A stretch of DNA of 64,000 nucleotides from a virus. Where the stretch lies: IMG/VR virus record IMGVR_UViG_3300032285_001771, positions 3,198 to 67,197 of that record. One strand, written 5' to 3'. Under the pieces are notes generated by a model. It made no database searches. It was given only the letters and a program-made list of their open reading frames with translations, and was not told the origin of the DNA. Shown here piece after piece: positions 2,067 to 18,533 of the stretch (its first letter is position 1; each line of letters begins with the position of its first letter). The position numbers and the translations under genes were made by a program.

Positions 2067-3278
2067 ATGATCTACAGCCCCACAACATCAAAACGTGCGG
2101 GATGGAATGAAACTCGTTTAAATCATATTAGCAAGTGGAATAACGATTCTGGTATTTTCATATACTTAGAACATGATCTTGTCTTATCAAATTTAGAGTT
2201 AGCAGATGCTTTTAATCAAGAGCATTGGGATAAGATCAATTTCGATCCTAATAGTAAATTGTTAATTAGTTTTTCGGGCGATTACGTAAATGCATATGAC
2301 CTTGAACGATTCGATAAAGATCTAACAGCAAATAATGTAGACAGGAGCAAGGTTTGGTTCCTTGCTATGGATCCACTATTTCAAAAGTTTGTACAAGATA
2401 GATTAAACATACCGAAAGAAAATGTTGGATATTTTAACTATCTGCTGTCTAATGTAGATGTTCCTATGTATAACACAGACAGTACCAAATTTAGATTTAG
2501 TATGCTAAGTCGTTGTTATAAAGAATGGCGATTAGATTTTTATCTAAGACTACTTTCAAAGCCATGTGACATTCTTAGTAAAACAATATATAGTTTCCAT
2601 AATTACGATCCTTACAACACCGCTGAAAAAACAATATCAATTAACAAAGTATTAGATGATTCTGACTCGCTTGGTTTCAACGATAGCAAAATTACTAATT
2701 GGATCAAGGCATTACCTTACGATCTACCAAACACTATAGTTCAAAACAAATGGTCTAAAGTTACATACGACTCAATACAAGCATCTGCAATTAACATCTG
2801 CATTGAAAGTCATTACGATCCTTTTATATACTGGAAAGAATTAAATGGAACTAACCCAGATGAGTTAAGCCCTGCGTTTGCTACAGAAAAAATTTATAAA
2901 TCTATAGCTTGTTCAAGACCGTTTATCGTAGTATCAACTCCGGGTTTTCTGAGAGGATTAAAAGAACTAGGATTTAAAACTTTTAATGGATACATCAATG
3001 AAGAGTATGATAACATATTAGACAACGATCTTCGTATGCAAGCTATTGTTGAGGAAATAGAAAGATTAAGTTTATTATCAGAAGACGATTTTGAACAAAT
3101 GATACAAGGGTGTCGAGAAGCAGTTAAACACAATTACAAATTATTAACAGTAATGAAATCAACAAGTAACTTGGATGATAATTGGAAATGGATCAAACCT
3201 TATATTGCAGAACAACCACTTACAACAAGATTATATAATTTTTTCAATATGATATACACAAAAAGAGGCAAACAGTGA
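2067..3278 (+). CDS. putative glycosyltransferase (GT10-like C-terminal motif)
   Basis: TEKIYKSI..RPFIVVS..G.L..LKELGFKTF..YINEEYD; paralog of 4590..5834. Confidence 0.55.
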   Translation: MIYSPTTSKRAGWNETRLNHISKWNNDSGIFIYLEHDLVLSNLELADAFNQEHWDKINFDPNSKLLISFSGDYVNAYDLERFDKDLTANNVDRSKVWFLAMDPLFQKFVQDRLNIPKENVGYFNYLLSNVDVPMYNTDSTKFRFSMLSRCYKEWRLDFYLRLLSKPCDILSKTIYSFHNYDPYNTAEKTISINKVLDDSDSLGFNDSKITNWIKALPYDLPNTIVQNKWSKVTYDSIQASAINICIESHYDPFIYWKELNGTNPDELSPAFATEKIYKSIACSRPFIVVSTPGFLRGLKELGFKTFNGYINEEYDNILDNDLRMQAIVEEIERLSLLSEDDFEQMIQGCREAVKHNYKLLTVMKSTSNLDDNWKWIKPYIAEQPLTTRLYNFFNMIYTKRGKQ

Positions 3279-4615
3279 GCGAAGTTGATAGAATACGCAA
3301 AGTTATTCCGATTGTAAACGACATAAGCCCTACATTCTGCTTGGCTAAGTGGCATCATACAACTATATATCTACAGAGTGGACAAACACATAGTTGTTAC
3401 CATCCACGTCCTCACGACATTCCCTTAGATCTAGCAGATCCTAGTGTACTACACAATACCCCGCAGAAGAAATCAGAAAGACAACAAATGCTAGACGGTA
3501 AAAAACCTAGTGGCTGTCAGTACTGTTGGAACATTGAATCACTAGAAGGTAATCATATTAGTGATAGACACGAGCGCAATGCCAGCATCTACACAGAAGA
3601 ACGACTAGGAGCTATAAAAGCCGATCCTCTAGCTCCTGTTAATCCAGAATATATTGAGATTAGCTTTGGCAACGAGTGTAACTTTAAGTGCGGATACTGC
3701 CACCCTAAACATTCTAGTGCCTATTACAAAGAGATCAAAGACTTTGGTCCTTACACAATGGTTAAGAATCATCGCAACGATGTTGATTACTTTAAAATAT
3801 ACGAAGAAGAAACTAATCCTTATGTAGAAGCATGGTGGAGATGGTGGCCAGAAGTTAGTAAGACGCTAAACATTCTACGTATTACAGGAGGAGAGCCTTT
3901 ACTACAACAATCAACATGGAGACTACTAGATGACTTATATAATAATCCTAAACCTAATCTTGAGCTTAATCTTAATACTAACCTCGGAGTTAAGCCAATC
4001 CTTATTGAAAGGCTTGTGGAGAAAGTTAACAAGTTATTAAAGGAAAACAAGATTAAACATTTTAAGTTGTTTACCAGTATTGATACATGGGGAGCACCTG
4101 CAGAGTATATACGAACTGGACTGGATCTTGCTGTATGGGAAAAGAACTTAGATACATACCTAACCAAAACTAAACAACCAATCACTTTTATGTGTACCTT
4201 TAACATATTGACCGTTACGAACTTTAGTTCTTTGTTGGTTAAGATATTAGAATGGCGCAAGAAGTACAACAGTTGGTTTAGCCGTAAAGAACGTATACGC
4301 TTTGATACACCTTATCTAAAAGAACCTCTACAATACGATATGAATCTATTGCCTAAAGAACACTTTATTAAGTATATGGAAATATCTTTAGAGTATATGC
4401 GCAGAAATAAATTTTCAGAACTAGAGCGCGAAAAATTTAGTCGCGTTGTTGAGTATATGAGAACTACAAATTATGATGAAAATAAACTTGCTGAAGGTCG
4501 CAGGGATTTTTATAACTGGTTTACTGAATACGACAAAAGACGTAACACCTCGTTTGAAGCAACGTTTCCAGAACTTACAAAATTCTATCATGACTGCGCG
4601 GCCTCCACCTCCTAA
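3275..4615 (+). CDS. radical SAM protein with N-terminal twitch/SPASM-like Cys domain (group A)
   Basis: CNFKCGYC, TGGEP; N-terminal FCLAKWHH...SCYH...GCQYCW. Confidence 0.92.
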   Translation: MSEVDRIRKVIPIVNDISPTFCLAKWHHTTIYLQSGQTHSCYHPRPHDIPLDLADPSVLHNTPQKKSERQQMLDGKKPSGCQYCWNIESLEGNHISDRHERNASIYTEERLGAIKADPLAPVNPEYIEISFGNECNFKCGYCHPKHSSAYYKEIKDFGPYTMVKNHRNDVDYFKIYEEETNPYVEAWWRWWPEVSKTLNILRITGGEPLLQQSTWRLLDDLYNNPKPNLELNLNTNLGVKPILIERLVEKVNKLLKENKIKHFKLFTSIDTWGAPAEYIRTGLDLAVWEKNLDTYLTKTKQPITFMCTFNILTVTNFSSLLVKILEWRKKYNSWFSRKERIRFDTPYLKEPLQYDMNLLPKEHFIKYMEISLEYMRRNKFSELEREKFSRVVEYMRTTNYDENKLAEGRRDFYNWFTEYDKRRNTSFEATFPELTKFYHDCAASTS

Positions 4616-16499: not shown

Positions 16500-17293
16500 T
16501 CTACACTCTTTACTTTGTTAAATTTTAATAGTGTTGACTTATCTACAGTTGTTTGTAAATCGGCAACTGGAATCATACCTATGTTTAGATGTTTAAATTT
16601 AAAATTCTGTTTTAGTAACCATAGTTTAATTATAATAGAACGGGCAAAGTATACAAATCGATTTGTAGATGGTCCAAATTTAATCATGAAATCTGCACTA
16701 TAATGAGTTTGTGGTCTTACAGCCTCTGACAAGTGATCTCTATCTTTGAATACATCTAATACAGTTTTACCTACATGGCAATAGTTAATGTATACTGTAC
16801 CTGAAGTCCAGCAATATGTAAAATGTTTGTACTCATCAACTGTTAATTCGAACCTTGGCCTGTTATTAAATGTAATAACTACTGTTGGGTGTTTTCCTTT
16901 AGTTCTTAATTCCGATTCTAATTGATGTATTAAGATATTAAATTTACATACAGCATCTTTTACATGGTTAGGTGCATTTTTGAACCATTCAGTTTCGTTT
17001 ACAACCTCTCCTCGCAAATCTTCAAAAAATTTATGTAGATAATTTAACTCTTGTTGATTGGTATCTTTTGTAATCTTTTTATCTATAATATTCTCGTAAG
17101 AATTGATAATGTCGATTTGTTCATTTAGTCTTTCTGGATAGTCCTGCTGTCCCCAATTACTAAACCTATCAGTTTCGTATAATTCATAATTTTTAGATAG
17201 TTCAGAGAACCATTTATTTGCTATATCAGTATCTCTTAACTTAAAAGTTAATACTAGATCATCAACGCCATTAGTAAAGGTTACATTAAACAT
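16487..17293 (-). CDS. hypothetical protein embedded between radical SAM genes
   Basis: 268-aa ORF overlapping both neighbours; LNYLHKFFE and YINYCHVGK segments; no family recognised. Confidence 0.75.
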   Translation of the reverse strand: MFNVTFTNGVDDLVLTFKLRDTDIANKWFSELSKNYELYETDRFSNWGQQDYPERLNEQIDIINSYENIIDKKITKDTNQQELNYLHKFFEDLRGEVVNETEWFKNAPNHVKDAVCKFNILIHQLESELRTKGKHPTVVITFNNRPRFELTVDEYKHFTYCWTSGTVYINYCHVGKTVLDVFKDRDHLSEAVRPQTHYSADFMIKFGPSTNRFVYFARSIIIKLWLLKQNFKFKHLNIGMIPVADLQTTVDKSTLLKFNKVKSVECLK

Positions 17294-18533
17294 AATCTTT
17301 AAACTCTATTGTAACATCTGTAAAACTTTGATTTCTTGTGTTATCTAGGGCTTGATTAAACTTCACACAGTCGTCCCACTTATCACTTTGATCTACGGCA
17401 TTAATATAGTTTATATTATCTTGTATCTGTCCTAGCGTATAGGGTAACAGTTCAGGATGTTGTCTAACCATTTTAAATTCTGGCACACGTGATTTAATCG
17501 CCTCTAGTCGCATAATTGCTAATTCCTTTAAAGGCTTTGGCAATACTTGAACACTTAACACTTTAGGATATGCTACTCGGTGTGTATGGAACACAATGCC
17601 TATGTCATTTAAAAAATATTCAATCATTTTATCTAATATAAGAACATTGCTGACTTGTACAGTAACAGCACCAACAATGCGACTGATATTTGTTATAGTT
17701 TGTATCTGTTTGATGTTGTTAACAAGTTCGGCCCATGAGGCGTTACCACGTACATATTCATAACTACTACCAATGCCATCGATGCTTACGTTAACAGCTA
17801 CGCTCTTAAACTTGGGCCAGTACTCCCATACTGTACGATTGCTCTTGCCCAATATACTTAGATTAGTCGCATACTTGATTTCAATTTGATGCCCGTACGG
17901 GGCAAGCATATCTAAAATCTTATAATGCTGTGGATCCATTAACGGCTCACCACCAGCAAACTCTACACGACGGAAGTATGGCAATAATTTTTCTAAACTT
18001 GCCCACCATTCTGGACTATCTTGAAATTTGTCAAGATGAGGTTTATTTTCTAAGTTGTGTTCTTCTACAATAGCATACATGATATTACCTTCTGCTTTGT
18101 AAAAGTCTTTAACTTCACTCCAATCGTTCCAGCTGGTACTATCCATTGGATGGCACATACGACATTTAAGATTGCACAAGTTGTTTAGTTTAAGTTCCAT
18201 GGTAGGAATCTCAAACGGCATAACTTCTAACAATGGTGTGTTAGGATATAGATTAATACGTGCTTCTGGAATCTTACCACTAACGTGTCTTTGACGTAAA
18301 CTTTCAACCCCTTGATCCTCTAAACTAAAACACGGTTCGCACTCGGCCGGGCGTTCTCCGTTTAACACTTGTCGACGGATACGTTGCATCGTATCGTTAT
18401 TCCAAATATCTTCTAGTGTAGCATCTTGTATAAAACCTACAGGATGGCTACGACAGCAAGCGCAAATGGCTCCATCTTCGCGTGTTGCTAATCCTGTAAA
18501 TGGATGCATACAAAATGTTTTACTTTGATTCAT
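17286..18533 (-). CDS. radical SAM protein with N-terminal twitch-like domain (group A)
   Basis: FCMHPF...ACC...CEPC, CNLKCRMC, AGGEP. Confidence 0.93.
   Translation of the reverse strand: MNQSKTFCMHPFTGLATREDGAICACCRSHPVGFIQDATLEDIWNNDTMQRIRRQVLNGERPAECEPCFSLEDQGVESLRQRHVSGKIPEARINLYPNTPLLEVMPFEIPTMELKLNNLCNLKCRMCHPMDSTSWNDWSEVKDFYKAEGNIMYAIVEEHNLENKPHLDKFQDSPEWWASLEKLLPYFRRVEFAGGEPLMDPQHYKILDMLAPYGHQIEIKYATNLSILGKSNRTVWEYWPKFKSVAVNVSIDGIGSSYEYVRGNASWAELVNNIKQIQTITNISRIVGAVTVQVSNVLILDKMIEYFLNDIGIVFHTHRVAYPKVLSVQVLPKPLKELAIMRLEAIKSRVPEFKMVRQHPELLPYTLGQIQDNINYINAVDQSDKWDDCVKFNQALDNTRNQSFTDVTIEFKDYV

Follow-up and report, generated by a model that had tools for sequence, protein, structure and literature searches.

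The stretch of viral DNA analyzed here (the window, 64,000 nucleotides [nt]) corresponds to bases 3198-67197 of a 67,197-base IMG/VR virus record (IMGVR_UViG_3300032285_001771) with a CheckV completeness of about 18%. It carries an island of radical S-adenosylmethionine (SAM) enzyme genes. The original prediction, made from the sequence alone, had listed eight of these genes in three paralog groups, and an open reading frame (ORF) check together with Pfam and BLASTP confirmed eight intact radical SAM (rSAM) ORFs at those positions, namely, three of group A (A1 to A3), three of group B (B1 to B3), and two of group C (C1 and C2) (Table 1). All eight match PF04055, with E values from 4.9e-6 to 4.9e-16, and six exceed its gathering score of 29.5; A1 (27.2) and A3 (28.2) fall below that score but pass the NCBIfam model NF033640. 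Two further rSAM genes, D and E, which lie beyond the span first noted, raise the total to ten in 23.4 kb, and the CxxxCxxC motif is kept in all ten. The genes overlap by 4 to 21 nt along both strands, and B2 and B3 converge as predicted, with a 21-nt overlap of their 3' ends at 15597-15617.

The division into three groups was examined by all-against-all BLASTP and by a tree of the rSAM core. Group A members share 24 to 26% amino acid identity (E values from 1.7e-18 to 7.8e-42), group B members share 23 to 33% (2e-12 to 6e-20), and C1 and C2 share 39% (3e-67). Matches between groups are short, with a best E value of 4.8e-6, and most of them lie around the CxxxCxxC motif. The rSAM-core tree comprises 88 rows from the sampled families (38 A, 24 B, 20 C, 4 D, and 2 E), and groups A, B, and C each fall on one side of a branch, with Shimodaira-Hasegawa-like approximate likelihood ratio test supports of 99, 85, and 99, respectively. 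The groups are accordingly monophyletic in this tree, although the group labels were taken from best BLAST hits, so that the monophyly is partly circular and holds within the sample rather than as a global proof. By their sequences, the three groups are real, old, and separate.

Group A is distinguished by the position of its auxiliary cysteines. Four cysteines (C31, C49, C107, and C110 in A2 numbering) precede the SAM motif and are invariant across the three paralogs, ahead of C165, C169, and C172; across A2 orthologs, C31, C49, C50, C107, and C110 are invariant. A1, A2, and A3 match NF033640 over model positions 1 to 397 or 398, scoring 313.5, 394.9, and 327.4 bits, respectively, against a cut-off of 170. 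The predicted reversal of the usual C-terminal auxiliary domain is therefore real; it is not a new inversion, since it defines this catalogued family (N_Twi_rSAM). The three proteins resemble the family in matching it end to end and in having a four-cysteine domain before CxxxCxxC, and they differ in that three old subtypes occur in one island, with A2 tied to B and C partners. Pfam SPASM matches residues 8 to 68 of A3 (E value, 3.6e-8) as well as the N termini of bacterial relatives. In a FastTree phylogeny, A1, A2, and A3 fall into three separate starred clades, those of A1 and A2 mixing phage and bacterial members. The A1 clade has 13 rows (nine genome rows, three phage rows, and the window), and the A2 clade (support of 99) has 12, nine of which are genome rows. 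A2 has 3,526 homologs at E values of ≤1e-5. No characterized N_Twi_rSAM protein was found in the literature searched.

Groups B and C would carry their putative auxiliary domain at the other end. The group motifs named in the original prediction are present in the translations, CNY[KHD]C[SE]YC and a C-terminal W[TS]Cxx G...C...C for group B and HLE..S.(K/R)CQA(R/S)CPMCPR and CGN(L/F)GDP for group C. Residues C35, C39, and C42 and residues C261, C281, C301, and C306 of B1 are invariant in 27 orthologs. No Pfam SPASM match was found in group B, which also stays below the cut-off of every NCBIfam model. Assignment of group B to the STM4011 family (NF038073), the top NCBIfam match for B1 (41.6 bits) and B3 (55.9 bits) and also listed for B2 (19.3 bits), was ruled out by its cut-off of 200. 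In group C, C1 scores 27.9 bits against the SPASM cut-off of 21.5, and C2 has no SPASM match at E values of ≤0.01. C255, C312, and C316 are invariant in this group and C236 and C256 are nearly so, and these five residues would fit one auxiliary cluster.

An AlphaFold2 model of B1 (pLDDT of 81, with 59 to 80 in the C-terminal part) has the cytosylglucuronate decarboxylase BlsE as its top fold match (Z score of 14.3; rmsd of 3.9 over 254 aligned residues), tied with MoaA, viperin, PqqE, and anSME. The model aligns over residues 22 to 315 with BlsE and MoaA, their C-terminal domains included, and BlsE (PDB 7VOB; E value, 1.1e-7) is also the nearest solved structure in a search with the group C profile. 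BtrN and DesII are among the listed twitch-type sugar and nucleotide rSAM enzymes as well, alongside BlsE and MoaA. With BlsE, groups B and C would have in common an rSAM barrel and, after it, a putative C-terminal domain for an auxiliary cluster. However, the identity is 12 to 16%, BlsE lies within 1 Z unit of MoaA, viperin, PqqE, and anSME, the group A auxiliary domain is at the opposite end, and the comparison was made at the level of fold and profile. All three groups look like two-cluster (twitch-like) rSAM enzymes, at the level of fold class alone, and each protein is predicted to be a complete rSAM enzyme with its own SAM cluster and one auxiliary four-cysteine (twitch-like) cluster.

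The conservation of these genes was assessed in phage loci with at least 6 kb upstream (45 loci) or at least 7 kb downstream (43 loci) of A2. Upstream, B1 is present in 42 of the 45 loci, a C gene of either kind in all 45, and the methyltransferase-like gene g11489 in 44, and A2-type, B1-type, and C-type genes occur together in 42. Downstream, B3, A3, and o20036 are found in all 43 loci and o19148 in 39. Lower counts were obtained for a B2 ortholog with at least 40% identity (24 of 43), the SGNH gene (18 of 43), gene D at 60% identity or more (16 of 43), and g16487 (10 of 43). This split in presence indicates a fixed core ringed by accessories.

Bacterial relatives were collected by a scan with the A1-A2-A3 alignment, one genome per species, and two peptide patterns, which yielded at least 79 phylogenetically clustered loci, 68 of 79 with Bdellovibrionota-type taxon names in their record titles. 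They include arrays reaching about ten A paralogs in 21 kb. Among sampled genomes from the phylum of a Bdellovibrionales metagenome-assembled genome (MAG), taken to be Bdellovibrionota, NF033640 was above its cut-off in 45 of 201, and it exceeded that score in none of the 14 control genomes. Group A stands by itself, with no B or C gene, in at least 48 of the 79 loci and in two cultured phages described below, which indicates that group A needs neither of the other two. Subtypes were counted in the 78 loci with a qualifying match to a window protein. An A2 ortholog (at least 40% identity) occurs in 18 of these, accompanied by a B1 ortholog in 12, a C gene in 15, and both in 11; a twelfth such locus is L113, where B1 is cut by the locus edge. 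By contrast, among the 60 loci that lack an A2 ortholog, B1 is represented by an ortholog in just 1. The order of the trio varies between bacterial loci (B1-C-A2, A2-C-B1, B1-A2-C, and C-A2-B1).

The trees are in line with a trio defined at the level of subtypes. The B1 clade (support of 100) consists of 17 rows, of which ten are genome rows, all from trio loci, and six are phage rows, plus the window, and B2 falls in a phage-only clade of 19 rows (support of 98). Phage C1 (12 rows) and C2 (30 rows) form separate phage clades, each with a support of 100, and the bacterial C genes associated with the trio group in a single starred clade (13 rows, each from a trio locus), whose position relative to the phage C1 and C2 clades is not settled by the tree. 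The conserved unit is A2+B1+C, with the caveat that the loci are kin to each other. The original prediction of modular A+B(+C) units thus survives in part, because phages and bacteria alike keep a set made up of one A, one B, and one C gene; it does not survive as a statement about operon neighbors, since B2 and the SGNH gene are accessory and the copy number of C varies. Neighboring phage A and B genes were likewise rejected as functional pairs, because the conserved partner of A2 is B1 and not the accessory B2.

Gene fusions and neighbors link these enzymes to glycosyltransferases (GTs). Three longer A2 relatives were found, two of which (P0121 and P0122) are A-A tandem fusions, and the third (P0123) joins o37139-like domains to an A1-type rSAM domain. 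A profile of B1 orthologs recovered 3,690 representatives at E values of ≤1e-3 and 90 at ≤1e-30, and among its best 150, 18 long or unusually sized relatives (440 to 2,478 amino acids [aa]) were surveyed. Eight of the 18 contain GT2 and/or GT1/GT4 domains, the number of GT2 domains reaching five, and in some cases also tetratricopeptide (TPR) repeats or a methyltransferase, and six are B-B fusions or fusions of a B12-binding rSAM (B12-rSAM) with two B domains. B-type domains are joined to B12-rSAM domains in P0209 and P0240, and the GT2-rSAM fusions P0212 and P0228 align along the full length of B3 with 28% identity. No A-B or A-C fusion was found in 2,391 locus ORFs, in the longer A2 relatives, or in the long B1 relatives examined. 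No longer (fused) C1 relative was found at E values of ≤1e-8, which is weak evidence. The fusions observed (A-A, B-B, B12-B, GT-B, and GT2-like-A) therefore tie same-group paralogs together and rSAM enzymes to glycosyltransferases. In addition, 118 non-rSAM ORFs were scanned in 15 trio-type bacterial loci. GT2 genes are present in 9 of the 15, often directly between the trio genes, and the same loci hold DegT, an NTP-transferase that carries a hexapeptide domain, UDP-glucose dehydrogenase, carbamoyltransferase, an ABC-2 exporter, and AspH-type hydroxylases. Genes for a GT1 and an asparagine-synthase-like protein occur in L162. No ribosomally made and post-translationally modified peptide (RiPP) recognition element (RRE), PqqD domain, or peptide-maturation family was seen among the rSAM proteins or the scanned neighbors.

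Table 1. Radical SAM genes of the island and other annotated features of the window
Feature	Coordinates	Strand	Evidence
A1, N-terminal-twitch radical SAM	3275..4615	+	NF033640, 313.5 bits (cut-off, 170)
SGNH/DUF6071-like (weak)	5824..6708	+	DUF6071, E 0.0014; GDSL_2, E 0.017; both below cut-offs
HAD (beta-phosphoglucomutase-like) + sugar-1-phosphate nucleotidylyltransferase-like fusion	7382..8803	+	Pfam HAD_2, E 1.1e-24
B1, radical SAM with putative C-terminal 4-Cys auxiliary domain, trio member	8804..9766	+	PF04055, 51.8 bits
C1, radical SAM/SPASM-type, GNxGDP	10513..11499	+	PF04055, 39.4 bits; SPASM, 27.9 bits
g11489, class I SAM methyltransferase-like, core partner beside A2	11489..12085	+	Motifs GGWxG...DIDP...NTSCEH (by eye)
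C2, second C-type radical SAM	12078..13172 (ORF 12066; 12078 = first ATG)	+	PF04055, 31.9 bits
A2, N-terminal-twitch radical SAM, trio member	13165..14583	+	NF033640, 394.9 bits
B2, accessory B-type radical SAM	14580..15617	+	PF04055, 51.4 bits
B3, core B-type radical SAM	15597..16499	-	PF04055, 59.8 bits
A3, N-terminal-twitch radical SAM	17286..18533	-	NF033640, 327.4 bits
GDSL/SGNH-like (weak), accessory	18520..19155	-	Lipase_GDSL, E 3.8e-4, below cut-off
o19148, pyridoxal phosphate-dependent fold-type I (aminotransferase class I/II-like), core	19148..19993	-	AlphaFold2 model, pLDDT 87.6
o20036, core protein, HxD...H motif	20036..20701	+	Possible cupin/2-oxoglutarate-type oxygenase (by eye); no Pfam match
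D, B12-binding-type radical SAM, accessory, beyond the span first noted	20698..22242	+	PF04055, 45.7 bits; B12-binding, 17.5 bits
E, zinc ribbon + radical SAM, beyond the span first noted	25549..26613	-	PF04055, 56 bits; Zn_ribbon_HMPTM, 47.2 bits
NodU/CmcH-type carbamoyltransferase	35606..37087	-	Carbam_trans_N, E 6.3e-41; Carbam_trans_C, E 3e-50
o37833/o37139 paralog pair, divergent GT2-like (GT-A), linked to group A	37139..38708	-	29% mutual identity
1443-aa protein and its relatives	41239-45570, 45579-47385, 60078-61655	-, -, +	Adjoin tail-like genes 54435-60088
A-type Fe-S carrier (IscA/HesB-like), first copy	47397..47723	-	PF01521, E 2.1e-14
A-type Fe-S carrier (IscA/HesB-like), second copy	49401..49709	+	PF01521, E 1e-14; 31% identical to first

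Several other genes of the window are of interest for the function of the island. The HAD-nucleotidylyltransferase fusion ends 1 nt before B1; its second domain matches NTP_transf_3 below the cut-off (E value, 8.5e-5), and the protein matches phrog_3980 (1.3e-76) and, in part, the NCBIfam models bPGM, Arch_glmU, and rmlA_long. The methyltransferase-like g11489 is also found in seven bacterial loci. It has no Pfam match, and its profile has no PDB match at E values of ≤1; an atlas lead (0.96) connects it to a viral cluster with Methyltransf_31 on 21% of its members. In the model of o19148, a pyridoxal phosphate (PLP) enzyme of fold type I, the best Foldseek matches are HisC, a CobD-type threonine-phosphate decarboxylase, and AspAT (E values of 2.4e-9 and up; TM scores of 0.5 to 0.6). 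K185 in its SLSK motif is invariant, and its homologs include 12 bacterial ORFs. Profile searches against the PDB gave chance-level rows alone for o19148 and a single row for o37139 (E value, 0.88). Gene D scores 17.5 bits against the B12-binding cut-off of 32.1 and 53.6 bits against the PhpK family cut-off of 600. The original prediction placed an SGNH gene in each operon; both genes are present, and both are weak calls, below the curated Pfam cut-offs.

The paralogs o37833 and o37139 are fused in that order in L104 and L112, and the o37139-like half of the L112 protein matches Pfam Glycos_transf_2 with 29.8 bits against a cut-off of 23.3. Homologs adjoin A2 orthologs in L102 and L108. Homologs of the carbamoyltransferase stand beside A-family genes in Ralstonia phage RsoM2USA (46% identity) and in 7 of the 79 bacterial loci. 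The window also encodes an NAD epimerase, TauD and AspH oxygenases, and a methyltransferase. The two A-type Fe-S carriers could supply clusters to the many rSAM enzymes; a search of four related virus records found this family in three of them, and it was not found in the near-complete genome G001.

Some observations concern the neighborhood rather than the rSAM genes themselves. Two paralogs of about 400 aa (2067-3278 and 4473-5834), whose C-terminal regions are 37.5% identical over 96 residues, flank A1 and match no family; the 143-nt overlap of the 4473 ORF with A1 makes a later true start probable for that ORF. The gene g16487 (16487-17293, minus strand), inserted between B3 and A3, has a faint MUG113 match (E value, 0.0048) and may be a mobile endonuclease-like insert. 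Small paralog families (o22239/o26694/o33524, o22900/o23459, and o24765/o31521) span 20036-25565, 26694-27380, 31521-32258, and 33524-34180; several show HxD...H by eye, none has a Pfam match, and their copy number varies among relatives. Farther downstream, the 1,443-aa protein (41239-45570, minus strand) contains S8 protease, esterase, and Ig-like domains and has a 525-aa paralog (34% identity), and two genes of about 300 aa resemble its C-terminal part. The motif TATAAATA, which we take to be the T4 late-promoter consensus, was rejected as an island feature because it has 2 sites in the whole window versus 9.6 expected; one (26652-26659, minus strand) lies 39 nt upstream of gene E and the other (54102-54109, minus strand) lies just upstream of an HNH endonuclease gene (53572-54093).

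Orthologs of A2 were found on 80 other viral contigs, with identities of 58 to 99%. One relative, G001, is 353,233 bases long and 99% complete and encodes a T4-type Gp23 capsid protein (E value, 9.3e-80); 9 of its 11 PF04055 matches lie within 11.2-23.4 kb. Since the A2-bearing contigs are numerous and G001 is large and has Gp23, the window represents part of the genome of a T4-like jumbo phage that is abundant and uncultured, and the island sits in a variable region of it. Cultured and deposited phages are nearly devoid of the three families, with A2 matching four records, B3 giving ten partial matches, and C1 matching four, and a megablast search of the island and of positions 46000-58000 against 50,697 phage records returned no match. 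Ralstonia phage RsoM2USA (L089) has one A1 ortholog, 35% identical over its full length and annotated as hypothetical, with two genes between it and the carbamoyltransferase gene and a DNA ligase gene nearby. Vibrio phage K566 (L090; record positions 161548-168284) has about four clustered, distant A-like paralogs, also annotated as hypothetical. Both are cultured jumbo phages and could serve as laboratory entry points.

Clusters of rSAM genes have been reported in other T4-like phages. In the host recognition cluster of pelagimyophages, rSAM cassettes that vary are found amid the glycosyltransferase genes (Zaragoza-Solas et al. 2020, PMC7029224). The island resembles this cluster of pelagimyophages and cyanomyophages as a hypervariable island of a marine or freshwater T4-like myophage with glycosyltransferases and rSAM cassettes (PMC7029224), and in line with this, the relative G001 has a T4-type Gp23 and tail-like genes follow downstream in the window. 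The host recognition cluster is flanked by the markers VrlC and gp14, and the likeness drawn here is based on content, not on those markers. In the available excerpts of that paper, rSAM cassettes are only mentioned, with no families, trio, or bacterial counterpart (PMC7029224). Campylobacter phages CP220 and CPt10 encode 11 and 12 rSAM proteins, respectively, among them five that make up an interchangeable module (Timms et al. 2010, PMC2853527), and they are likewise T4-like phages with multi-rSAM modules. However, their proteins are distant from those described here, with C1 24% identical to a CP220 protein over 77% of its length, B3 matching CPt10 over 30% of its length, and A2 without a match. 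As far as the excerpts of the two papers go, neither families nor functions are assigned to the rSAM modules (PMC2853527, PMC7029224). Nothing relevant on Bdellovibrio rSAM paralogs or on rSAM enzymes in capsular polysaccharide pathways was found in the literature searched.

The reading we favor, with a confidence slightly better than even, is that the island carries out sequential radical tailoring of a sugar or glycan by complete two-cluster rSAM enzymes acting in series. The enzymes would act one after another on a sugar, a sugar nucleotide, or a growing glycan, where the 5'-deoxyadenosyl radical would abstract a hydrogen and lead to epimerization, dehydrogenation, deoxygenation, decarboxylation, or C-C or C-methyl chemistry. 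They would work alongside the glycosyltransferases, the methyltransferase, the PLP enzyme, the oxygenases, and the carbamoyltransferase. The functional core would be A2, B1, and one C enzyme, with the methyltransferase-like protein and, in bacteria, a GT2 enzyme. B3 and A3, the PLP enzyme, and o20036 would form a second fixed block in phages, and B2, extra C copies, the B12-rSAM, SGNH, and A1 would be swappable accessories that vary the product. A sugar is suggested by the GT fusions and GT2 neighbors, by the HAD-nucleotidylyltransferase, NAD epimerase, and carbamoyltransferase of the window, and by BlsE as the nearest match for B1 and C. Action in series is suggested by the short overlaps of the genes and by the same-group fusions (A-A, B-B, and B-B12). 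The families, the intactness of the genes, their co-occurrence, the fusions, and the gene neighbors are direct observations, from which we infer that the substrate is a sugar, which types of reaction occur and in what order, and the target, which may be virion decoration or the host surface. An extension of this reading, conceivable and at present doubtful, is that A2+B1+C is a fixed three-enzyme cassette that, with GT2 and the methyltransferase, builds a rearranged or branched sugar shown on the surfaces of giant T4-like phages and of predatory Bdellovibrionota, both of which need to attach to other cells, and that swappable rSAM paralogs diversify this sugar, as a radical-chemistry counterpart to O-antigen variation.

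A number of points weigh against a sugar or glycan. None of the window proteins scores above a curated glycosyltransferase cut-off. For o37139 and o37833, the GT2-like assignment derives from one bacterial relative, Pfam gave 1 faint GT2 match among 11 members of the o37139 family, and hhalign of this family against two GT2 alignments returned probabilities of 7% and 0.3%; a GT8-like reading of 39222-40887 was made by eye only. The HAD-nucleotidylyltransferase gene is not conserved in relatives, being found upstream of B1 in L034 only, and no DegT-type sugar aminotransferase is among the roughly 40 Foldseek rows shown for o19148, which contain HisC, CobD, and AspAT-like enzymes instead. Because BlsE is tied with MoaA, viperin, PqqE, anSME, and peptide maturases, the BlsE matches do not single out a sugar substrate, and the AspH/LpxO-type hydroxylases and a fatty-acid desaturase (L110) would equally fit a lipid. 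The literature searched yielded no substrate or product for any member of the three families. In addition, the bacterial sample stems from two peptide patterns and is phylogenetically clustered, and the short MAG contigs on which some of the "bacterial" loci lie may be phage DNA that was placed in the wrong bin. L091, L110, L104, and L114, which are short contigs of non-Bdellovibrionota MAGs with phage-like versions of the island, are probably of this kind; L091 and L110 come from one Crocinitomicaceae MAG, and L091 is 76% identical to A2 and has phage-type neighbors.

A rival view is that the product is a small secondary metabolite or a lipid-linked molecule, such as a compound resembling a nucleoside or an aminoglycoside, or the lipid portion of lipopolysaccharide, and not a polymeric surface glycan. 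The PLP enzyme is of an amino-acid type, the window encodes the carbamoyltransferase, TauD, AspH/LpxO-type hydroxylases, a halogenase-like flavoenzyme, a QueC-like protein, and methyltransferases, the B12-rSAM has weak PhpK-type matches, and the desaturase in L110 is joined by MlaC in L108; the closest folds include three enzymes with nucleoside or nucleotide substrates, namely, BlsE, MoaA, and viperin. This view is nevertheless fairly unlikely, as the giant GT-rSAM fusions, with up to five GT2 domains and TPR repeats, and the GT2 and ABC-2 exporter genes beside the trio point to a polymer or surface glycoconjugate, and nonribosomal peptide synthetases, polyketide synthases, and typical small-molecule export genes were not seen in 164 neighboring ORFs scanned. 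The original prediction had also suggested heteromers, and the A, B, and C proteins might form obligate rSAM complexes (A+B or A+B+C) rather than separate enzymes working in turn. The A2, B1, and C subtypes stay close through several rearrangements in phages and bacteria, A-B adjacency in phage loci is higher than in shuffled gene orders (86 observed versus 46 expected), and the overlap of start and stop codons suggests coupled translation. We regard such complexes as unlikely because every protein is predicted to be a complete rSAM enzyme with two clusters of its own, the rSAM-rSAM fusions observed join members of the same group, with no A-B or A-C fusion among the locus ORFs and long relatives searched, and group A occurs by itself in many bacterial loci and in both cultured jumbo phages.

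Two further explanations concern peptides and nucleic acids. SPASM/twitch rSAM enzymes are typically peptide maturases, weak NCBIfam and PDB matches to SkfB, anSME, PqqE, SuiB, EpeE, and other such proteins were obtained, AspH-type hydroxylases act on proteins, and large S8-protease/Ig-domain proteins are encoded nearby, so that the rSAM proteins could mature a ribosomal peptide or protein in a RiPP-like manner (by cross-linking, epimerization, or methylation), possibly the neighboring giant virion proteins. That they do so is decidedly improbable, since all matches to peptide-maturase families are far below cut-offs, PqqD and RRE domains were not found in the rSAM proteins or the scanned neighbors, and the fusions and neighbors are glycosyltransferases. 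The largest intergenic gaps between 2067 and 41225 are 80, 58, 51, and 42 nt, so that a separate precursor gene would not fit, overlapping small ORFs aside. Phages use rSAM, PLP, and oxygenase enzymes in base hypermodification, and the island could on these grounds modify the phage DNA or the nucleotide pool against host restriction; a QueC-like gene (29343-30023) and weak viperin-like and QueE-like matches would fit. We give this explanation hardly any credence, as the QueC match is confined to the C-terminal 57 residues, the trio and the A arrays sit among GT2 genes in Bdellovibrionota chromosomes, the window yielded no signature of a kinase, a hydroxymethylase, or a DNA glycosyltransferase, and the gene content varies like that of a surface-glycan locus.

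Sugar-editing radical SAM enzymes are known from antibiotic pathways, where they serve as single steps. In the present case, one phage island holds eight to thirteen rSAM genes, three unstudied families recur together in an abundant phage lineage, and group A recurs in roughly one in five of the genomes sampled from the phylum that is taken to be Bdellovibrionota. Since the trio and the natural GT-rSAM fusions are small, expressible gene sets that suggest a substrate class, the products of these arrays are testable at the bench. The answer could reveal new radical chemistry on carbohydrates and a new layer of surface variation in phages and bacterial predators that bears on host recognition.

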